The position numbers were made by a program, and so were the translations under genes. Below, one piece after another: positions 1-9,166 of a DNA stretch of 64,000 nucleotides. The stretch covers positions 544,001 through 608,000 of the forward strand of contig CP045477.1 of assembly GCA_009392915.1 (NCBI GenBank), written 5' to 3'. Within the stretch, counting starts at the first letter, position 1. The number at the start of each line of letters is the position of its first letter. A model generated the notes under the pieces. It had not been told where the DNA came from. It worked only from the letters and a program-made list of their open reading frames with translations, and did not search any database. The DNA is from Candidatus Forterrea multitransposorum CG_2015-17_Forterrea_25_41. GTDB lineage: Archaea > Iainarchaeota > Iainarchaeia > Iainarchaeales > CSSED10-239.

Positions 1-153
1 ATAAAAAAACCTTATCAAATTATGTATCAACTTATAAATATTATATATTACAATAAGTTTAAATACATATCATTTTAGATATCAAAATGGATATTAAATA
101 TAAATATCATTCTTTTTCGTCATAAGTTATCTATTGACTTAAAAGGTGATGTT

Positions 154-294
154 ATGTGTAGAGTTATATTTACTCTTCCCAAATATATAAAACAAAAATT
201 AGAAAAAATAGCAAAAGAAAAAAATACAACACAATCTGAATTGATTAGAGCCTCTCTTTATTTGTATTTAGATAAGGAGAGTGATAATAAATGA
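154..294 (+). CDS. Ribbon-helix-helix (CopG/Arc-like) DNA-binding protein, 46 aa (not in the ORF track)
   Basis: Translation is MCRVIFTLPKYIKQKLEKIAKEKNTTQSELIRASLYLYLDKESDNK: a beta-strand (VIFTLP) followed by two helices, the classic RHH pattern. A GGTGAT Shine-Dalgarno sits 5 nt upstream of the ATG at 154. The stop TGA overlaps the next ATG (ATGA at 291-294). Confidence 0.6.
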   Translation: MCRVIFTLPKYIKQKLEKIAKEKNTTQSELIRASLYLYLDKESDNK

Positions 295-923
295 TATTCT
301 CAAAAGCACATAAAACATATACTAGTTGGTTAAAATCAGCTAGTAAAACAAGATATACATTTAAAATCATTAGAAAACATTCAATATTTCCTAACTATAA
401 CTTAAAACAATTAAGAAATACTAAACTAAGTGGTTATTTTCTTAATAAAACAAATTGGAATAATTTAACTAATATTCAAAAAGCTAATAGAAAACAAGTA
501 ACAAACGCACTTAGACAAATAAGAAAGGGCTATTCATTAAAAGATGTTGTTAAAATTAATGGAATTAACAAAGAAACAATACAAAAACACTTAGGAAATT
601 ATCTATTCAAAAGAAAAGGCAAATGGCAAGTAAGAAAAACAGATAGATTACAACTAAAACTAATGATTTTTGAAAAAAGAATGTGTGCAAGAACAATAAT
701 TACTACAAATTCTAAAGATAGACAATTAATTGGTAAATATTTTGCTAATGTTAAACTAGCTCTTAGAGAAAATAACCCTTATTATCTAAAACAATTCAAA
801 AATAAGAAAATAATTGATGCTTATGGAAAAGCACATCATTTTGAAACAGATTTAGATAGATTAAAAATGTGTGAAGAAGCTATAGAAGAGCCAGAATATT
901 TGGAAATATATAGAAATAGATGA
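291..923 (+). CDS. Hypothetical protein with a putative HTH segment, element-encoded
   Basis: 210 aa and basic. An HTH-like stretch (SLKDVVKINGINKETIQKHL) is present. It is translationally coupled to the upstream RHH gene. Function unknown; a terminal-protein role is only speculation. Confidence 0.4.
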   Translation: MIFSKAHKTYTSWLKSASKTRYTFKIIRKHSIFPNYNLKQLRNTKLSGYFLNKTNWNNLTNIQKANRKQVTNALRQIRKGYSLKDVVKINGINKETIQKHLGNYLFKRKGKWQVRKTDRLQLKLMIFEKRMCARTIITTNSKDRQLIGKYFANVKLALRENNPYYLKQFKNKKIIDAYGKAHHFETDLDRLKMCEEAIEEPEYLEIYRNR

Positions 924-927
924 TATT

Positions 928-1248
928 ATGACTGAACAAATAGGCAGTGGTCTTTCTTGTTATCTTTGTGGAGAAGACCATCCAGCAGTAATTAAGAAAT
1001 TAGAATTACATCATATTGATGGTAAAGCTAATTCAAATACCACTGTTGCTATTTGTCAAAATTGTCATAATAAAATTACTTGTGAACAAAATAAACTATC
1101 TCCTAAATTGAGATCTAATAAAAATAAAGATTCTTTGATCAAGTTAGGTTATCAATTATTAAGTCACGGGGCTTTATTGAAGACTTTAGGAGAAACACAA
1201 ATAAAAATTGGAAAAGAGATGATTGAATATGAAAAAAATAATACTTAG
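928..1248 (+). CDS. HNH endonuclease
   Basis: Motifs CYLCGEDHP...LHHIDG...N...CQNCHNKI give two Cys pairs plus HH-N-H, an HNH zinc-finger nuclease signature. Its 3' end overlaps the PolB start. Confidence 0.6.
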   Translation: MTEQIGSGLSCYLCGEDHPAVIKKLELHHIDGKANSNTTVAICQNCHNKITCEQNKLSPKLRSNKNKDSLIKLGYQLLSHGALLKTLGETQIKIGKEMIEYEKNNT

Positions 1249-2791
1249 AGCATTTGCTAATGTTAATACAAATAAGAAAGACTATACTACAGAAATTAAA
1301 AAACATAGAAGAGTTTTAGTATTTGATACTGAAACAACTACTGATGAATATCAAAACCTTAAGATAGGGTTCTTTCAGGTTTATCAAGATAATATTAAGG
1401 TAAATGAAGGTTTATTCTATATAAATGACTTACCTAATGAAGATATTAAGGTTCTACAAAAATATTCTAGAACCTACCCTACCTCACTATATACCTTAGA
1501 TAAATTTAAAGATATATTCTATAAAGAAGTGTATAATAGAGGTACGTTATGTATTGGTTATAATCTAGCTTTTGATATATCTAGAATAGCTCAAAAATAT
1601 GGATATTCTAGAAAATATAATAAGGGTGGGTTTACATTTACTTTATCTAAGGATATAAACAAACCTCCTATAATTATTAAAAAATTAGGTGATGCTAATA
1701 CTTTTAAATTTCAAAGAAATATTGCTAATAAAGGTAAATCTTACAAAAGTGGTTATTTTTTAGATGTTCAAACAATATCTAAAATAATATTAGATAAGAG
1801 AAGGATTAGTTTAGATAAATCCTGTGAAATATTAAATACAACAACTAAAAAAATGAAAAATATCACACATGGAAAAATAACTAAACTTTATATTGATTAT
1901 TTAATTACTGATGTGAAGTCTACATTTGAAGTATATTTAGAATTATTAAAAGAATTTAAAAAATATGATATTGATATTCCATTAGAAAAAACATATAGTT
2001 CAGCATCTCTAGGTAAACAAGCATTAGCTCAATTAGGAATAAAATCTTTTTTTAATTGTAATCCGAATTTTAGTAAAGAATTAATCGGAATTATAATGTC
2101 TACTTATTATGGTGGAAGATGTGAATGTGTTTATAGAAAAAAACCAGTTAAAATTGATTATCTTGATTTTACTTCAATGTATCCTACTATTACCTTATTA
2201 TATGGTATTTGGGACTTTATAATTGCAGAACAAATAACTACTGAAGATGTTACTGATGAAATAAAAAATTTAGTTGAGAATATAGATTTAGAAAGTTTAA
2301 AAAATAAAGAATTATTTAGACAATTTAATGTACTTGTGAAAATTAAACCAAACAAAGATTTATTGCCAATTAGATTTGATTATAAAAACAAAAATGAAAA
2401 TAATAACTTAGGATTAAATTATCTTACAAGTGATAAAGAATTATGGTATACTTTACCGGATATAATTTCATCAAAAATACTAACTGGAAAAGCACCTCAA
2501 ATACTTGAAGCTATTAGATTTAAACCCAATGGAATACAAAGTGATCTTAAAAAATCTAAAATTGTTGGAGTAAATATAAACCCTAAGAAAGAAAATTTAA
2601 TTAAAATTTGTGTAGATAAAAGACAAGAAATTAAAAAAGAGATAAAAGAGTTAAAAAAAGATGATTTAGAATCTAAAAGACTTGATGGTATTCAGAGAGC
2701 CCTTAAAATTTTAGTTAATACTTTTAGTTATGGTATATTTATTGAATTAAATCCTAAAGAGGTAAAAAATAACATTAAATTTATGGTTTAA
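1223..2791 (+). CDS. Protein-primed family B DNA polymerase, N-terminal part (3'-5' exonuclease plus pol motifs A and B)
   Basis: Exo I is VLVFDTETTTDEY (DxE). Exo II is YNLAFDISRI. Exo III is YIDYLITDV (Yx3D). A YxGG-like motif is YYGGRCE. Motif A is LDFTSMYPT (DxxSxYPS). Motif B is KILVNTFSYGIF (Kx3NSxYG). The ORF stops shortly after motif B. Confidence 0.7.
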   Translation: MNMKKIILRAFANVNTNKKDYTTEIKKHRRVLVFDTETTTDEYQNLKIGFFQVYQDNIKVNEGLFYINDLPNEDIKVLQKYSRTYPTSLYTLDKFKDIFYKEVYNRGTLCIGYNLAFDISRIAQKYGYSRKYNKGGFTFTLSKDINKPPIIIKKLGDANTFKFQRNIANKGKSYKSGYFLDVQTISKIILDKRRISLDKSCEILNTTTKKMKNITHGKITKLYIDYLITDVKSTFEVYLELLKEFKKYDIDIPLEKTYSSASLGKQALAQLGIKSFFNCNPNFSKELIGIIMSTYYGGRCECVYRKKPVKIDYLDFTSMYPTITLLYGIWDFIIAEQITTEDVTDEIKNLVENIDLESLKNKELFRQFNVLVKIKPNKDLLPIRFDYKNKNENNNLGLNYLTSDKELWYTLPDIISSKILTGKAPQILEAIRFKPNGIQSDLKKSKIVGVNINPKKENLIKICVDKRQEIKKEIKELKKDDLESKRLDGIQRALKILVNTFSYGIFIELNPKEVKNNIKFMV

Positions 2792-3804
2792 ATGAATTTT
2801 CTTCTGATGTAAAACATATAGAAAATATTGGTAAATATTTCAATCCTATATTAGGCACGATAATAACCTCAGGAGCAAGATTATTTTTAGCTATAGCTCA
2901 ATCAATTACAGAAAAACAAGGGTATAAGCACGTTTATATGGATACAGACAGTATTTTAGTTCCTATTGAGGTATCTAGTAAGGTAATAAATTATTTTAAA
3001 CCTTTAAATCCTTATTCTTCAGATATAGCTTTACTTAAAAAAGAGAAAGAAGATGTATGTTTCTATGGTATTTGTAGTAAAAGATATTGTTTATATAATT
3101 TTAAAAATAAAAAAATTGAACTTATGGATTATAAATTACATGGTTTAGGGCATCTTATTAATCCTTGGAGTAATAAAAAGGATTGGCATAAGGATGTTTG
3201 GTTAGATATATTGAATTTACATTATAATTATATTACATCAGCAGAAATTTATGAAAAATATTCTGTAGTTTATGGAATATCTAGATTTACAGTATCTACT
3301 CCACATTTAATTAAGAGATTTAATACAATTAATAATGATAGACCTTATGAAGAACAAATTAAACCATCTAATTTTTTTTATTTAGGGTTTTCTGTAAATA
3401 AGAATAATTCTGTAAAACCATTAGTGCCTTTTGGAGGAAATCCTCAAAAGTTGGTTTATGATGAATTTATTGATTATAATACTGGAAAGGTAATGCAAGG
3501 TTGTGAGTATTGGAAACCTTTAGGAAATACAATCTTAGAGTATATTGATCATTCAGAGTATAAGTTAGATGGGGGTATTGGGCAATTAGAAAGAAAACAT
3601 ATTGTTTGTAATGATATTCAGTATATAGGAAAAGAAGCAAACAATATTGATGAAGAAGCTATATCTTCTTTTAAACCTATTGAGTATAAGAACAATAATC
3701 AGTTTAAGAAGGATCTTAGGTCATTGAATAATAAGGAGTTGATGCAAAAGTACCATTTCAAGACTAGGAGTCACATCAAGTATTGGAGAGATAAATTATT
3801 CTAA
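2779..3804 (+). CDS. Protein-primed family B DNA polymerase, C-terminal part (Tx2GR, motif C, KxY). It lies in the -1 frame relative to the N-terminal part.
   Basis: The frame is open from 2779: IYWLNEFSSDVKHIENIGKYFNPILGTIITSGARLFLAIAQSITEKQGYKHVYMDTDSILV. ITSGAR is the Tx2G/AR motif of protein-priming PolBs. YMDTDSI is motif C (YxDTDS). KRYCLY is KxY-like. The two parts together would give about 860 aa. The first ATG is at 2938. Confidence 0.65.
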   Translation: MYGLNEFSSDVKHIENIGKYFNPILGTIITSGARLFLAIAQSITEKQGYKHVYMDTDSILVPIEVSSKVINYFKPLNPYSSDIALLKKEKEDVCFYGICSKRYCLYNFKNKKIELMDYKLHGLGHLINPWSNKKDWHKDVWLDILNLHYNYITSAEIYEKYSVVYGISRFTVSTPHLIKRFNTINNDRPYEEQIKPSNFFYLGFSVNKNNSVKPLVPFGGNPQKLVYDEFIDYNTGKVMQGCEYWKPLGNTILEYIDHSEYKLDGGIGQLERKHIVCNDIQYIGKEANNIDEEAISSFKPIEYKNNNQFKKDLRSLNNKELMQKYHFKTRSHIKYWRDKLF

Positions 3805-5013
3805 CGATTCATATTCATAGCAATGTTTTTTTTTAGTATTTTTAATAACTAATCTTTTATCCATATCTTTATAAACTTCAGGAGGCATAAAAGTATTTTT
3901 ACCAAAAGTTACAAAATTATATTTAGTCATATCCTTAATATCTGTTTTTAAAACACCTATAATAAATGATAATTTTTGTTTAGTTTTATAATATAAAGTC
4001 CAACAAGTAAATTTATTTTTAATTAAAATATCATCTTTTTTACCATTTGAAAAAGCGCAATAAATACCAAAATCAAAATTATCCCAACCTAAAAATCTTT
4101 GGACATAATTTTTATTAGATTTTTTAAATTCAATGTATTTCTTAAATATTTCAATACCAAAATTACATTTTTGAAATGAATTTAATTTTAAAATTTGTTC
4201 AATAAATAAATAATCATCTTGCGATTCACACTTTTCTAATTGAAATATTAAGTCATCTATAAATACACTATATTTTTCATTATTCTTTTTAATATCTAGT
4301 TGATTTTTTAAAAACTCTTTATAATTAAATTCATCAAATAATATTAAACTCGCATCAACCCACTTTTTTGTAAGTTCAGCAATACCGTCTTTATTTTGTA
4401 AGTAAATACCTAATATATTTCTTTCTGAATCTAATAAATTATTTTTATTTATGATTAGTTCTCTTTTATCTAAATAATCTATGAAGTCAACAGGTGTGTG
4501 TATATAATTTATAATTTCATTTATTTCTGTATAATTAAAAATATGTGGCATTATTTTAATATTTGATGATTCTTTTTGTGTAATTGATAACAATCCTTTA
4601 TTTGCTAATTCATAATTTCCATTATTAATAACAACACCATAGATTTTCTTAATTTTTTTAAAATTACTATTTGTTAATTTTATATTTTCATTAAATTTAT
4701 TTTTAATATTCACATGAATTTTATTTTCTTTGATTCTATTTATACTTGCACGTAATTGTTTTGTTGGATTGTATATAGCTTTTTGTATATATCTTTTATC
4801 GATAATATCATGTATTTTTGTTTTTATTTGAATAATTATAGCAACATCATTTAATAAAATAATGAAATCGCATAACTCTTTATTATTTTCTAATTGTGGA
4901 TTTGGAAAAACAAAATATTTATGAAAAATAGGTTGTAAAATATTATTATATATTTTTTCTTCAAAAGAATCTTTAAAGTTATAATTATTATTCATAAATA
5001 AATAATATTGCAA
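3796..5013 (-). CDS. Hypothetical protein with a possible PD-(D/E)xK / NERD-like nuclease motif
   Basis: 405 aa. The N-terminal segment CDFIILLNDVAIIIQIKTK resembles a D...(E/Q)xK restriction-endonuclease-fold core. The rest is unassignable by eye. Confidence 0.3.
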   Translation of the reverse strand: MQYYLFMNNNYNFKDSFEEKIYNNILQPIFHKYFVFPNPQLENNKELCDFIILLNDVAIIIQIKTKIHDIIDKRYIQKAIYNPTKQLRASINRIKENKIHVNIKNKFNENIKLTNSNFKKIKKIYGVVINNGNYELANKGLLSITQKESSNIKIMPHIFNYTEINEIINYIHTPVDFIDYLDKRELIINKNNLLDSERNILGIYLQNKDGIAELTKKWVDASLILFDEFNYKEFLKNQLDIKKNNEKYSVFIDDLIFQLEKCESQDDYLFIEQILKLNSFQKCNFGIEIFKKYIEFKKSNKNYVQRFLGWDNFDFGIYCAFSNGKKDDILIKNKFTCWTLYYKTKQKLSFIIGVLKTDIKDMTKYNFVTFGKNTFMPPEVYKDMDKRLVIKNTKKKHCYEYESLE

Positions 5014-5126
5014 AATATGTATAAATATTACTATTAGAACAAACGTACAAAAATAATTAGATATATATAACCCGGCTTCTTTTTATTATTTTATTTTCAC
5101 TCTTTGAAAGTTTTTTATTCTTTTCT

Positions 5127-5423
5127 ATGAATAAAGATTACAACAATTACATTATTTCAGTAATAGGAGGATTAACAACTGGTTTTATAATTATTATAAT
5201 TCCAGAATTATTAAAAGTTATATTTGATAAAAATATAAAACTATTTATTAAAATTATTTTTCTAATTGGGATGATATTATTTTTAATATGGAGTTTATTG
5301 TTTGTAGGAAATAAATTCTTTTTAAAACAAAAAAAACGTACTAAAGAATTAAACAAATTAATAATAACAAGTATTATATTTATTCTTATTAATATTATAT
5401 TAGAGTGCTTAATAAATCTGTAA
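5127..5423 (+). CDS. Small hydrophobic membrane protein (hypothetical)
   Basis: 98 aa with two or three predicted TM helices. It is preferred over the antisense 69-aa ORF because it is longer and more hydrophobic. Confidence 0.3.
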   Translation: MNKDYNNYIISVIGGLTTGFIIIIIPELLKVIFDKNIKLFIKIIFLIGMILFLIWSLLFVGNKFFLKQKKRTKELNKLIITSIIFILINIILECLINL

Positions 5424-5508
5424 TTATTATTTTTTTATTAAATTAACATAAATTATAAAAAAACATTTTTATTTAAAAAAATAATTTTTATATTTAATAA
5501 AATAAAAA

Positions 5509-6387
5509 TTAATGATAATGCACAGATAACGTTAAAACTCCCGCTTCTTTATATTCACCACGATAATTTTTTACATGCCCATGATAATGATATTTAAAAT
5601 TACATTTCTTTTTTAAATCATATATATTAATTGATCCTAAATTGTAAAACGTAATACCAGGACAGTGAGATACAAAAATTGTTTTATTACTAAAATAAGT
5701 TCTAAAAAAATCAATTCGTTTTTTATCCATTCTCAAACTATTATCAATTGAAGAAATATATTTTTCTTTACCAGATTTATCAGAATTAACTCCTGTTAAA
5801 TATAAATCTTTATTTAAATATATTAGTTCTAAATCCATAGGATTATAAAAATTAGGGTTATTTATAATTTTATAAATTATTGGAATATTATTAAAATAAT
5901 TATTTAATTCCATTAAATCTCCATTAAAAAATGAACCCATAATATATTTTCTTTGAGGAAAAGCCAATATACTATCGTGATTTCCAGAATAAAATAATAT
6001 TCTTATGTCTTTTTTAACACAATAATTTTCAAAATCAATAAAATTATCAATCTCATTTTTATTTTTAGAATAAATTAATTCAGATAGTAAATTACCAAAA
6101 TCTTCTGAAGTAATATTAAGTAAATTATTTTTATTTTTGTTTAAATAATCATACACTTGAAATTCATTCCAATAAGATTTTAAAAAAGAAAAAATATCTC
6201 CTAAAAACACAACTAATTTAATTTTTTTAGCACATAAAATTTTAATTAACTTTTTTTTTATTATTAAAGAAAATCTTTCAATATCTGATATAAAATAAAT
6301 TTCATCTAATTCAATATCTTTATTAAATAAACGATGAAAATCAAATTTTATATTAATTAAATTAGGCACTATTTTTTTATCCTTCAA
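5509..6387 (-). CDS. Calcineurin-like metallophosphoesterase
   Basis: Ordered MPE motifs: DxH-like (FDFHRLF), GD (FLGDIFS), GNHD (YSGNHDS), GH (HYHGHV). Confidence 0.6.
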   Translation of the reverse strand: MKDKKIVPNLINIKFDFHRLFNKDIELDEIYFISDIERFSLIIKKKLIKILCAKKIKLVVFLGDIFSFLKSYWNEFQVYDYLNKNKNNLLNITSEDFGNLLSELIYSKNKNEIDNFIDFENYCVKKDIRILFYSGNHDSILAFPQRKYIMGSFFNGDLMELNNYFNNIPIIYKIINNPNFYNPMDLELIYLNKDLYLTGVNSDKSGKEKYISSIDNSLRMDKKRIDFFRTYFSNKTIFVSHCPGITFYNLGSINIYDLKKKCNFKYHYHGHVKNYRGEYKEAGVLTLSVHYH

Positions 6388-6438
6388 TATTTATCTCCCC
6401 TATATACTTATTCACATTAAACAATATATTCAAAAATA

Positions 6439-7047
6439 TTATTTATAAAGTTTTATTCCTTCCAAAAGATCTATTCCAATAGATTTTTTTACTGCAATTT
6501 CCCTTATATATGAAACTATAGATTTATCTAAACAATCCCAATATCCAAATTTATCTATTAAATAAGCAATTAATTGAAAATACATATATTCAAATCTATA
6601 ATCTTCCTCATAATATAATGGGAAATGAATAAAATTATTTCTTTGATTTCCAATTAAATTAAATAAACTTTCGATTAATTCTTTATTTGAATCTTTATTA
6701 TTAATAATATATGAAAATAACTTAAATTTTAATTTACCTAAAGTTCTATTTTTAATTGGTATTTGTAAATAATTTATTGGATCTTTATCAATTAATATTA
6801 TTTTAACTAATCCTTCAACACAAATATTTAACAAAATAATATGAGAAATTTCCTCTGTAGTAGAATCTTCTTTTAATTTTTTATAATTATTTAACAAAAA
6901 TTTAAATTGCTTAAATAAATTAGCTATAAATTTTTGTTTTTTTTCATCTACATCAACTTTATCTAATAATTTACATTCCATAATTAAAGAGAGTTTTTGT
7001 AACTCTTTTAAACGATTATTTAATTCTTTAACCATAATTTCACACAT
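6439..7047 (-). CDS. Hypothetical protein with a HEPN-like Rx4H motif
   Basis: 202 aa, helical. GNQRNNFIHFPLY contains R-x4-H. Nothing else is recognisable. Confidence 0.35.
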   Translation of the reverse strand: MCEIMVKELNNRLKELQKLSLIMECKLLDKVDVDEKKQKFIANLFKQFKFLLNNYKKLKEDSTTEEISHIILLNICVEGLVKIILIDKDPINYLQIPIKNRTLGKLKFKLFSYIINNKDSNKELIESLFNLIGNQRNNFIHFPLYYEEDYRFEYMYFQLIAYLIDKFGYWDCLDKSIVSYIREIAVKKSIGIDLLEGIKLYK

Positions 7048-7065
7048 TTATTTTATAAATTTAAT

Positions 7066-7935
7066 TTATTTAATTAAATCAGATATTTTAACACTTAACA
7101 CATAACCAATTCTTGAAAGGTCTTTTGTTTCAATATTAATTACTCTTAAATTATTGTTTTCTAAAATCTTATTTTTATTTGCATATCTTTTTATTTCTTT
7201 ATTTCTTTTTTCTTCATTTAATGAATTTAATCCTCCATTAAATTCAATATAAATATCTTCTTTAGGTAAATAAAAATCAATTAATCTATATTCTGCTTTA
7301 TCACCTTTTAAAAAATCAACATAATATTCAGGAATATACCTAATTTTTAATTCTTGCAGAGAAAGTGCAACTAATTTTTCTCCTTCACTCCTAGTTTTCA
7401 AATAATTTTCTTTATTAATAGTTTTTAATTTTTTTTTATTAATATCTAATAACCAATTTACATACCATTGATAGGTATCCCATTGATCCCATTTTTCTCC
7501 TGCATAAAAATGTTTAGATTCATTATCTTTTCTATAATAAAATCTTCTCCAATCATGAGGAGTAGTTTTTATAATAAATGTAGTTTGTTTATCTTTTTTA
7601 ATATAAACATCCTCTTTATTAACTACTAAATGTTTCATATGATTAGGAAACATTTTTTCAGAACCTGGTTTTTCAATATTTGGATCATATCCACAAGCTA
7701 AATGAAAATGAATAGTAACTTTATTTATTTTTATATTTGCACAAAATTTTTTATCATCAATAATTACACAGTATGGTTCTGAAGGAAACCAATCTTTAAC
7801 CATATCTTGAAAAATTTCGGATGCTTTAGAATATTGACAATCTTTCTTAAATTTATCATATTTTTTTTTATCATACCTAGCATTAATTAATCTTTCTGAA
7901 TTTGTTAATTTGTAATCCTTTAATAAATAACTCAT
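7066..7935 (-). CDS. Hypothetical protein with a C-terminal DUF559/Vsr-like (PD-(D/E)xK) endonuclease-like segment
   Basis: C-terminal RLIDFYLPKEDIYIEFNGGLN...RNKEIKRYANKNKILENNNLRVINIE resembles the D...IExDG core of DUF559/very-short-patch-repair-like domains. N-terminal 200 aa unknown. Confidence 0.35.
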   Translation of the reverse strand: MSYLLKDYKLTNSERLINARYDKKKYDKFKKDCQYSKASEIFQDMVKDWFPSEPYCVIIDDKKFCANIKINKVTIHFHLACGYDPNIEKPGSEKMFPNHMKHLVVNKEDVYIKKDKQTTFIIKTTPHDWRRFYYRKDNESKHFYAGEKWDQWDTYQWYVNWLLDINKKKLKTINKENYLKTRSEGEKLVALSLQELKIRYIPEYYVDFLKGDKAEYRLIDFYLPKEDIYIEFNGGLNSLNEEKRNKEIKRYANKNKILENNNLRVINIETKDLSRIGYVLSVKISDLIK

Positions 7936-7945
7936 AATAACCCTC

Positions 7946-8515
7946 TTATCTTTTTTTAAAATTTCTTTTTCTTGAATGATTAAATTTAGAATTCTTATTA
8001 AAGCGACTAGATAAATTAGAAGGCTGTCTTTTAAAAGATCTAAATTTATTTACTTTTCTCTTTAAATAATGTGTAATTGTATAATATTTAATAAAATTTA
8101 AAATAATTATTGCAATTAAAATATAAATTAATAATTCTAAAATTAAAGAAAATAATGAAAAATCACTTAAATTAAGTATTATTTTTACAAATAAACCAAT
8201 AATAGGAATTAATAATAAACTAATATAAATTTCAATTAAAAAAAATCTATTTTTCGAATCTAATAAATACAGTCCACGTAACAGATTTTTGATAAAACTA
8301 ATAATTGTTTTAATAATTACAATAAATATAACTATTAAAGAAATAGAAAAATAAATTGTTTTTTTTATTTCACTAAGATTTGAAGATTTTATTAAAATAT
8401 TAATTAAAATAAAAAAAATCAATGTTGAGCAATAATATAAAAGGTTATTTTTATTTTCATTCCAAAAACGATGCCAAATATCTTTATGTAAAAAACTTTT
8501 ATGTTTTTTAATCAT
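7946..8515 (-). CDS. Polytopic membrane protein with a basic C-terminal tail (hypothetical)
   Basis: Four or five hydrophobic helices, then an R/K-rich tail. Confidence 0.35.
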   Translation of the reverse strand: MIKKHKSFLHKDIWHRFWNENKNNLLYYCSTLIFFILINILIKSSNLSEIKKTIYFSISLIVIFIVIIKTIISFIKNLLRGLYLLDSKNRFFLIEIYISLLLIPIIGLFVKIILNLSDFSLFSLILELLIYILIAIIILNFIKYYTITHYLKRKVNKFRSFKRQPSNLSSRFNKNSKFNHSRKRNFKKR

Positions 8516-8793
8516 ATATATTAAATTAATCCATTTATTTATAAATCTATTTAATTATATAAATTATTAAAATTAATATAAAATTTATTAATTAATTTAA
8601 TTTTATTTATAAGCTAATATATATTTCGAAAATCAGTATAATATTTATAAAAATACTACAAAAACTATATATTCTATAATAAATAACATTAAATCTCTTT
8701 TTAGGTATTAATAAAAATAAGAAAATAAATTATTTTTTTAAAGAAGGAATAATTTATTTTTCAAATTATTTATTTACATTTAGTATGTTTATT

Positions 8794-8964
8794 TTATTTT
8801 TTATGAGAAAATAAACCCCAAACTAAAAATATTACAAACAATACTACAAATATATAGAATAACACTAATGCAATGTTAGTTGCAACATCTGAAATTCTTC
8901 CAAAACCAAAAATTGCAGAAATTATTGCTATTACTAAAAATATAATTGCCCATCTAAGAAACAT
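8794..8964 (-). CDS. DUF1328/UPF0391-family small membrane protein, 56 aa (not in the ORF track)
   Basis: The reverse complement translates to MFLRWAIIFLVIAIISAIFGFGRISDVATNIALVLFYIFVVLFVIFLVWGLFSHKK. The start (MFLRWAIIFLVIA...FGFG) matches the conserved N-terminus of UPF0391 proteins. Confidence 0.55.
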   Translation of the reverse strand: MFLRWAIIFLVIAIISAIFGFGRISDVATNIALVLFYIFVVLFVIFLVWGLFSHKK

Positions 8965-9166
8965 ATAACATCACCTTCATATATTATAGTTGAAATATCT
9001 TATAAAGAGGTGTAATTAGCAGTTATACCTTAAATTACTAATATAAATGAATTAATAAATATAATTACTGAACATTTATTTATAAAAAACCTCTAAATAA
9101 AAATGTTTTGTTACTTAAATATATTATAACTAATTTTTTAAAAAAATAATTAATAAAGAAACACAT

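Follow-up and report, generated by a model that had tools for sequence, protein, structure and literature searches.

Casposons are transposons that carry a Cas1 integrase and their own DNA polymerase, and the spacer-integration machinery of CRISPR systems is thought to derive from them. The described members of family 2 reside in Euryarchaeota, mostly Methanosarcinales, and are targeted to tRNA-Leu, tRNA-Pro, or intergenic sites. Published descriptions of this family give a 14-bp target duplication, a 4-bp overlap with the tRNA gene, a 31-bp terminal inverted repeat (TIR), and a 3'-terminal C (PMC6977970; PMC4779613). Two HTH proteins are among the family-2 core genes (PMC4046053), and one of them is matched by the 210-aa HTH protein (HTH-210) of the locus described here.

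We analyzed a stretch of 64,000 nucleotides (the window) from a low-GC, ~0.84-Mb DPANN (Iainarchaeota-like) archaeon. With a probability of roughly 0.9, positions 1-5073 belong to a complete family-2-type casposon of 8,368 bp, inserted at the 3' end of a tRNA-Thr(UGU) gene; its right-hand 5 kb or so lies inside the window and the left 3.3 kb outside. The casposon is a known type of element in a host group apparently not reported before. Its left part was recovered from a contig, L001, that is 100% identical to window positions 1-7952 and carries Cas1 (window coordinate = 7953 - L001 coordinate). Two divergent operons flank a conserved 153-bp spacer, the leftward one encoding HTH-277, the Cas1 casposase, and a membrane ORF, and the rightward one encoding RHH, HTH-210, HNH, and PolB; variable cargo (239-aa, 152-aa, and 405-aa ORFs) occupies both ends. 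An earlier note, made from the window alone, had recognized a mobile-element module at the left end and had placed the window's start inside it. Both points held. The ORFs that it named are all present, none is housekeeping, and the leftward contig shows 3.3 kb more of the element. An integrase gene, which according to the note could not be seen in the window, does exist directly to the left, in the form of the casposase. The note did not name the kind of element.

Features of the casposon and its target, from the tRNA gene to the right-hand duplication. Plain coordinates refer to the window; those marked L001 refer to the contig that extends it leftward.
Feature	Coordinates	Strand	Remarks
tRNA-Thr(UGU)	L001 11256-11331		outside window
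Left target duplication GGCTTCTTTTTATT	L001 11248-11261		outside window
Left TIR GGGTTATAGCTATTTCACTTTTTTTGTACG	L001 11218-11247		outside window
Cargo ORF, 239 aa	L001 10466-11185
Membrane cargo ORF, 152 aa	L001 9967-10425
Cas1 casposase, 393 aa	L001 8781-9962		Cas_Cas1 match
HTH-277 (277 aa)	L001 7951-8784		orthologues in L007, L006, L009, L008
HTH-277 start codon, last two bases	1..2	-	first gene of leftward operon, "HTH-h" orthologue
Divergent regulatory spacer	1..153	none	five same-strand TATCA motifs at 13, 25, 68, 80, 105
RHH (CopG/Arc-like) regulator, 46 aa	154..294	+	Pfam RHH_1 E 1.2e-4; PHROG CopG-like 4e-7
210-aa HTH protein, conserved family-2 casposon core gene	291..923	+	weak HTH_40 match
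HNH endonuclease, 106 aa	928..1248	+	CxxC...HH...CxxCH motifs; PHROG HNH 7.6e-6
PolB N-terminal fragment	1229..2791	+	exonuclease motifs I-III, polymerase motifs A and B; premature TAA 2789-2791
Frameshift site	2779..2780	+	1-nt deletion vs intact relatives
PolB C-terminal fragment	2779..3804	+	-1 frame; motif C (YMDTDS), KxY, thumb/C-terminal region
405-aa cargo ORF (399 aa from ATG 4995)	3796..5013	-	possible N-terminal NERD/PD-(D/E)xK-like domain
Right TIR	5044..5073	-	reverse complement GGGTTATATATATCTAATTATTTTTGTACG
Right target duplication GGCTTCTTTTTATT	5074..5087	none	sequence match to left copy

The 14-bp duplication is exact at both ends of the casposon. A single exact copy occurs in the 64-kb window and a second at the tRNA-Thr 3' end in L001, where the duplication overlaps the tRNA-Thr(UGU) gene, its first 4 nt being also the gene's final 4. 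The TIRs are 30 bp long and imperfect, left and right agreeing at 24/30 nt by manual count from the aligned sequences; they terminate ...ACCC-3' and have conserved GGGTTATA and TTTTTGTACG blocks, in both TIRs and across the related loci L006, L007, L013, and L015. These TIRs came to light only once the tRNA and duplication had been located by eye; a blind search for inverted repeats (blastn-short) in the extended 20 kb yielded nothing but chance matches rich in AT and did not rank the true TIRs above noise. The borders and attachment site that the earlier note could not see are thus the TIRs, the 14-bp duplication, and the tRNA-Thr target, and its right boundary near 5100 agrees with a TIR that ends at 5073 and a duplication that ends at 5087. 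No second tRNA-derived attachment repeat was found to the right of the casposon. An exact search of metagenome and genome contig collections for the empty site (tRNA end, duplication, and right flank) was negative, so that this copy is only a candidate for mobility.

The Cas1 protein matched Pfam Cas_Cas1 with an E-value of 2.3e-62. Its match to the solved M. mazei family-2 casposase, 6OPM, had an E-value of 8.7e-132 and ran along the entire protein, C-terminal extension included (query residues 1-393 against chain residues 18-414). Comparison with 6OPM showed identical catalytic-region motifs, conserved catalytic residues, and the C-terminal HTH extension. Likeness to this family-2 reference structure, together with synteny, points to family 2. 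In a rough neighbor-joining tree of close relatives only, the DPANN-type casposases made a separate clade. The adjacent HTH-277 protein is 26% identical to its collinear Methanosarcina casposon orthologue, and searches of Pfam and NCBIfam detected no HEAT-repeat domain in it. A Cas1 protein search of genome contigs for related loci yielded no confirmed locus.

In the rightward operon, RHH has orthologues in L007, L006, and L008; HTH-210 is 45% identical to the collinear orthologue of Methanosarcina sp. WH1 and 32-59% identical to DPANN copies; and HNH orthologues are 42-65% identical, with the Methanosarcina casposon copy at 47%. A single operon-like chain of RHH, HTH, HNH, and polB genes, as proposed earlier, was borne out. 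Chaining by overlap applies to the ATGA at 291-294 and to the HNH/polB junction (20-26 nt), but HTH and HNH are only adjacent, the HNH start lying 4 nt past the HTH stop. Across the 64 kb, TATCA occurs on average 0.6 times per 153-bp segment; the spacer has the highest count among all 1,277 such segments, and its columns are 85% identical with L007 and L006.

Could the Cas1 gene instead belong to a remnant CRISPR-Cas adaptation module that lies beside a polymerase island by chance? Its NCBI label is "CRISPR-associated endonuclease Cas1", and the protein passes the generic TIGR00287 cas1 model, but no CRISPR-subtype Cas1 model attains its cut-off, and the casposase is the best PDB match by ~95 orders of magnitude. 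Moreover, the gene sits inside the TIR and duplication boundaries, there is no Cas2 or other cas gene, and neither a multi-copy direct repeat family in L001 nor a CRISPR repeat family in the window was found. We rejected this explanation, whose probability is negligible. A virus or linear plasmid with a protein-primed PolB (pPolB), in which capsid or tyrosine-integrase genes would lie off the window and HTH-210 would be the terminal protein, is very improbable, and is already refuted where the kind of element is concerned. Terminal proteins diverge fast, and it is thus weak evidence that Pfam, PHROGs, and NCBIfam showed no terminal-protein similarity for HNH and HTH-210, the proteins encoded upstream of polB. 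The terminal-protein role that the earlier note considered for the 210-aa protein gained no evidence; the protein is a collinear orthologue of a casposon HTH core gene instead.

The polB gene of the casposon is split in two, with an ORF at 1223-2791 in frame 2 and a second part that stays open in frame 1 between 2779 and 3804. We place its start at ATG 1229 (TTG 1223 in the program ORF list), which gives the range of overlap with the HNH 3' end. DNA comparison with L006, L007, and L008 traced the split to a 1-nt deletion, AAA ATT TAT to AAA TT TAT, and the frameshift is identical in the four contigs that span the site, which come from four samples and two assembly kinds. The frameshift was not mentioned in the earlier note. 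The fused protein aligns end to end (100% of its length), with no gap at the junction, to intact PolBs of 853-891 aa from Methanosarcinales and DPANN archaea. Its full-length identity to intact casposon PolBs is 47-63%, and it contains motifs Exo I-III, A, B, C, and KxY. No polymerase family was matched in a Pfam search of the window's PolB halves, and identification came through homologues rather than from that direct search. Among solved folds, that of phi29 polymerase is nearest to the casposon PolB, which is compact and has no N-terminal domain; the casposon polymerase matches archaeal-type PF00136 and Thermococcales PolBs in the PDB at least as often.

As a result of the 1-nt deletion, the window casposon has most likely lost autonomous replication and begun to decay, while its casposase, TIRs, and duplication remain intact. 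These same intact parts would also suit a fully functional casposon, in which slippage during translation or transcription still yields PolB, its two halves cooperate as separate polypeptides, or PolB is not needed, the activity being supplied by the host's polymerase or by another casposon. In M. mazei, mini-casposons reduced to TIRs and target duplications do translocate (PMC10359463), and L015 is a relative bounded by TIRs and duplications that has no PolB at all. The PolB halves are otherwise stop-free and 57-64% identical to intact relatives, which fits a functional protein and indicates that the lesion is recent. Nevertheless, the site (ATT AAA TTT ATG) contains no zero-frame X XXY YYZ slippery heptamer and an A-run of 3 nt only, and polB is a single uninterrupted ORF in the full-length relatives L006, L007, L008, L009, and L011 and in the aligned homologue proteins; on these grounds programmed -1 frameshifting was rejected as unlikely. 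Separate translation of the second half would begin at the first second-frame ATG, at 2938 within motif C, at a cost of ~50 residues, and no intact near-identical PolB copy was present among 5.8 billion protein clusters. A fully functional casposon is thus unlikely, and we favor a copy that has lost autonomous replication.

All six core genes are collinear and orthologous with those of Methanosarcina sp. WH1 (L008) and of four DPANN or metagenomic loci. Four relatives (L006, L007, L013, and L015) adjoin tRNA-Thr(UGU) and have duplications that start with GGCT; both duplication copies are visible in L007 and L015. In Methanosarcina, tRNA-Leu is followed by CGCA plus AT-rich sequence and then by the TIR GGGATCTAGG..., a layout that agrees with the published description and thereby supports the casposon reading. 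Family-2 elements of Methanosarcinales (M. mazei MetMaz1FA1A3-C2 and L008) share with our locus the leftward HTH-h and Cas1 genes, rightward RHH, HTH (~210 aa), HNH, and PolB genes in equal order, a casposase with a C-terminal HTH extension (49-56% identical), ~30-bp TIRs that begin GGGA/T and end with a 3' C, and variable cargo at the element ends. They also share a 14-bp duplication that begins with the final 4 nt of a tRNA gene and continues as AT-rich sequence (PMC6977970; PMC4779613). By contrast, their host is a euryarchaeal methanogen rather than a DPANN archaeon at 22-24% GC, and their target is tRNA-Leu with CGCA rather than tRNA-Thr(UGU) with GGCT. PolB here is ~20-30 C-terminal residues shorter, it is frameshifted in the window copy, and the DPANN-type casposases group by themselves in the rough tree.

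AciBoo-C1 of Aciduliprofundum boonei (family 2) is alike by its published description in its Cas1 casposase, with demonstrated integration at a tRNA 3' end, in its 14-15-bp duplications, and in a PolB of a divergent cluster related to the main and protein-primed groups (PMC6977970; PMC7544198). It differs, again by description, in its tRNA-Pro target and in that its PolB cluster is named for a CDTDS motif C, where the window clade has MDTDS. Family 1 casposons (Nitrosopumilus) and other pPolB elements (phi29-like phages, His1/His2, and pipolins) likewise encode a family-B polymerase without an N-terminal domain. Unlike the casposon described here, family 1 members have casposases without a C-terminal HTH, target aEF-2, and lack the HNH, two-HTH, and RHH module (PMC4046053; PMC8464041).

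By analogy with M. mazei and A. boonei, the casposase would bind the TIRs, and the 3'-OH ends would attack the two target strands 14 bp apart in the GGCT plus T/A-rich stretch directly 3' of the tRNA, with the duplication arising through gap repair; the upstream tRNA sequence probably steers site choice. RHH probably represses the divergent promoters via the TATCA repeats. PolB would replicate the element ("self-synthesizing"), a step that cannot operate as described in the window copy with its broken polymerase.

Judged by sequence, the window locus and its relatives form a distinct casposon clade in tiny-genome DPANN archaea. This clade keeps the insertion geometry, a 14-bp duplication that overlaps the tRNA by its final 4 nt, and changes the tRNA (Thr-UGU) and the tetranucleotide (GGCT). 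The tRNA-Thr casposase represents a naturally occurring variant, altered in specificity, of a casposase with a known structure and could help to map how target choice is encoded. Public annotation is also corrected, as the casposase is labeled "CRISPR-associated Cas1" in genomes without CRISPR; the concept of the casposon is unchanged. A literature search of incomplete coverage found no link of casposons to DPANN hosts or tRNA-Thr, which is weak evidence. The locus draws attention to the priming mode of family-2 PolB. Conceivably, though quite improbably, this polymerase is protein-primed or self-priming rather than RNA-primed and uses a small upstream protein (e.g., HTH-210) as primer or terminal protein, in which case the DPANN clade that targets tRNA-Thr would be a lineage with mobility of its own that exchanges casposons with methanogens.

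The 405-aa cargo ORF and the 3' end of polB share 9 nt. This ORF had no match in Pfam, PHROG, PADLOC, or PDB sequences and no homologue in related casposons; a word-indexed search gave one distant homologue. Its AF2 model, built from 3 sequences, had a pLDDT of 42.5 and was too poor for use. Among 178 distant homologues, 5 of 40 match Pfam NERD (best E 4e-4), giving weak support to its earlier description as nuclease-like. The composition of positions 1-5100, to which the earlier note had drawn attention, does differ from the remainder but only mildly, with a casposon GC of 0.217 against 0.237 +/- 0.012 for the rest of the sequence and a tetranucleotide distance ~2 sd over the mean.

The mobile element at the left end of the window is a casposon of the family-2 type. 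This kind of element is already known; new are its host group, previously unreported, its tRNA target, and its freshly broken polymerase. The host belongs to the Iainarchaeota, a lineage of the kingdom Nanobdellati (DPANN). A literature search found no casposon in DPANN or at tRNA-Thr, which is weak evidence of novelty because the literature searched was incomplete. From the sequence alone, the earlier note had proposed a mobile element, cut by the window start and ending near 5100. That reading was partly right: all three points stood, and the kind of element can now be added. The gene chain it had listed (RHH, HTH, HNH, polB, and 405-aa ORF) is present in both the ORF listing and the raw sequence.

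Searching for exact matches to the 405-aa protein yielded five contigs from independent assemblies (Logan; ENA metaSPAdes and MEGAHIT), each agreeing with the window at 100% identity along a stretch of up to 8.9 kb. One of these, L001, reaches 5,795 bp beyond the left end of the window and carries the genes listed first in the table. In a PDB search, the best match to the Cas1 protein was the solved M. mazei casposase 6OPM (E 8.7e-132); the match runs the full length of the protein and takes in a C-terminal extension of the type typical of family-2 casposases. The second-best match was a CRISPR Cas1 (1.8e-37). The protein passed a generic cas1 model and none of the CRISPR-subtype models, and neither cas2 nor a repeat array was found among the ORFs and repeats of L001 and the window. 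NCBI labels this casposase (NCP71967.1 and others) 'CRISPR-associated endonuclease Cas1', despite a locus without cas2 or array. CRISPR counts based on cas1 could be inflated in DPANN genomes by such casposons.

Features of the casposon and its flanks, in order from the left; L001 coordinates convert to window coordinates as 7953 minus the L001 value
Feature	Position	Remarks
Host genes	left of tRNA-Thr(UGU)	161-aa ORF, then MacB/FtsX
tRNA-Thr(UGU)	left of window	beyond 239-aa ORF
239-aa ORF	left of window	fourth gene left of window
Membrane ORF, 152 aa	L001 9967-10425	third left of window
Cas1 casposase, 393 aa	L001 8781-9962	second left of window
HTH-277 protein, 277 aa	left of window	first left of window; start codon over window bases 0-2
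RHH protein, 46 aa	154-294	Pfam RHH_1; PHROG CopG/Arc-like
HTH-210 protein, 210 aa	291-923	ATGA common to its start and the RHH stop
HNH nuclease, 106 aa	928-1248	PHROG HNH families
Family-B polymerase	ATG at 1229	
405-aa ORF	3796-5013	convergent to polB
98-aa membrane ORF	within 5088-9100	
292-aa ORF	within 5088-9100	calcineurin-like phosphoesterase
202-aa ORF	within 5088-9100	
289-aa ORF	within 5088-9100	C-terminus: PADLOC PDC-S69 (E 3e-8), HEAT_CxxC_PD-DEXK; PHROG 4538
189-aa membrane ORF	7946-8515	in island 5088-9100

The leftward extension also revealed the terminal repeats and attachment site sought there. Past tRNA-Thr(UGU), the sequence reads …TAGAGGCT/TCTTTTTATT/GGGTTATAGCTATTTCACTTTTTTTGTACG…, and the 14-mer GGCTTCTTTTTATT occurs exactly twice in L001 and once in the 64-kb window, at 5074-5087, just short of the border predicted near 5100. 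Directly inside each copy sit 30-bp inverted termini, the left terminal inverted repeat (TIR) being GGGTTATAGCTATTTCACTTTTTTTGTACG and the right TIR (window 5044-5073) reading GGGTTATATATATCTAATTATTTTTGTACG as its reverse complement, with 24 of 30 nucleotides matching. Because the 14-bp duplications and inverted termini bound it, the casposon spans window -3294 to 5073, or 8,368 bp; the part outside the window holds HTH-277, Cas1, two ORFs, and the left TIR. The duplication opens with the final 4 nt of the tRNA gene, which leaves the tRNA intact. This border geometry is that published for M. mazei family-2 casposons, which have a 14-bp duplication overlapping tRNA-Leu by 4 bp, AT-rich sequence after a conserved 5' tetranucleotide, and a 31-bp TIR with a 3'-terminal C (PMC6977970; PMC4779613). 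We observed the same geometry directly in Methanosarcina sp. WH1 beside tRNA-Leu (…CGCATCTGTTTTAA/GGGATCTAGGTAAC…).

Loci retrieved for relatives of PolB and Cas1 show the same two divergent operons. Methanosarcina sp. WH1 has collinear orthologues of all six core proteins (Cas1, 49% identity; HTH-277, 26%; RHH, 38%; HTH-210, 45%; HNH, 47%; PolB, 48-49%), and most of the six are present at the DPANN loci. This shared core agrees with the family-2 core as published, which comprises Cas1, PolB, HNH, and two HTH proteins (PMC4046053; PMC4779613). The 239-aa, 152-aa, and 405-aa ORFs are cargo, as no relative compared has a counterpart. Four low-GC elements (L006, L007, L013, and L015) all adjoin tRNA-Thr(UGU) and have duplications starting with GGCT; both copies are present and identical in L007 and L015, and the L013 TIR matches the left TIR of the window casposon at 30 of 30 nucleotides. 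L006 faces the other way with respect to the tRNA, an arrangement also reported for M. mazei. In a rough NJ tree, the low-GC casposases form their own clade, apart from a methanogen clade and from a group including a Woesearchaeota MAG. Elsewhere, family-2-type casposases occur in the complete Ca. Iainarchaeum genome CP064981 and one Woesearchaeota MAG.

In three of these elements, methyltransferase or restriction-modification genes lie between Cas1 and the nearby TIR: an Eco47II REase and C5 methylase (L007 188-1831), a D12 methylase and 191-aa ORF (L013 4337-5856), and an N6/N4 methylase and MjaI REase (L015 5949-7690). In the window casposon, that interval contains the uncharacterised 152-aa membrane ORF and the 239-aa ORF. 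At tRNA-Thr in L015 (125-7776; also L014), TIRs and a perfect 14-bp duplication delimit an element whose Cas1 is 75% identical. This element retains HTH-277 and Cas1, has no detectable PolB, HNH, HTH-210, or RHH, and carries the N6/N4 methylase and MjaI-type restriction enzyme, an AsnC-type wHTH protein, and an ABC fragment; it seems to be a casposon derivative that lacks PolB. Directly past the right duplication, a TIR-like sequence (GGGATATA…) recurs in L007 (8526-8560), L015 (about 7777-7800), and L014 (about 5296-5320), which suggests tandem casposons or solo TIRs at one tRNA-Thr site, as described for Methanosarcina. In CP064981 (L011 9182-10004), two overlapping ORFs of 164 and 119 aa occupy the HTH-277 position, and tRNA-Arg(UCG) lies ~2.3 kb past Cas1; this may be a further casposon in decay, one whose target is a different tRNA.

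Five TATCA motifs lie on one strand of the 153-bp spacer between the operons (window 1-153), the highest number for any 153-bp stretch of the 64 kb. The spacer is 85% column-identical to its L007 and L006 counterparts; the adjoining proteins are only 36-60% identical. The equivalent spacer of the Woesearchaeota element also contains five TGATA/TATCA motifs. Window 1-153 probably serves the RHH regulator as operator and promoter region; the RHH protein is the obvious candidate to bind there.

The polB gene is split. Frame 2 stops at TAA (2789-2791), and the remainder (…GKYFNPILG…YMDTDS…) lies in frame 1 from 2779. The fused 860-aa protein covers 100% of intact 853-891-aa relatives and aligns without gaps over the junction (…SYGIFIELNPKEVKNNIK/IYGLNEF…). 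With two low-GC sequences, one of them from a 'Candidatus ainarchaeum' MAG, it shares 60-61% identity, and with proteins of Methanococcoides, Methanolobus, Methanohalophilus, and Methanosarcina ~50%. At the junction, L006 reads CAA AAA ATA TAT GGT TTA AAT GAA TTT and the window reads ATT AAA -TT TAT GGT TTA AAT GAA TTT, a 1-nt deletion relative to L006. Read in the zero frame, this site does not form a canonical slippery heptamer, and all full-length relatives examined are unshifted. The deletion is shared by all four assemblies spanning the site, and the lesion is therefore real and fixed in the sampled populations; it is recent, because both polB halves are otherwise free of stops. A 5.8-billion-cluster protein database contained no intact near-identical PolB. 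Most likely, this casposon copy can no longer make its polymerase; its casposase and both ends are intact.

As to the kind of polymerase, listed as protein-primed in the earlier note, neither half nor the fused protein matched a Pfam polymerase model; among 11 family members, eight matched PF00136 (best E 5e-7) and four PF03175 (best E 6.8e-15). A phmmer search of the PDB returned only Thermococcales PolBs, and no terminal protein was evident among the casposon genes. Casposon papers of 2014 and 2016 treat family-2 PolBs as relatives of RNA-primed PolB3, and a 2020 survey assigns the A. boonei casposon enzyme to a separate cluster with ties to the main as well as the protein-primed group (PMC7544198). 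Our results fit the separate-cluster view.

Outside the casposon, the window (GC ~23%) is ordinary archaeal chromosome, with archaeal-type GluRS, GlyRS, Lon, a ZIP transporter, DisA, and three tRNAs. Comparing the composition of 1-5100 with the rest, as the earlier note had proposed, identified a stronger outlier than the casposon itself: region 5088-9100 has a GC of 0.178, lower than all other 4-kb windows, and a tetranucleotide distance of 0.40, above the maximum for the rest. A search of this region found neither an integrase nor a second att-like repeat. The region could represent an older island or a defence island sharing the casposon's tRNA hot spot. The 152-aa casposon membrane protein and the 189-aa ORF of this region, both low-complexity membrane proteins, show weak similarity (40% over 43 residues, E 4e-4).
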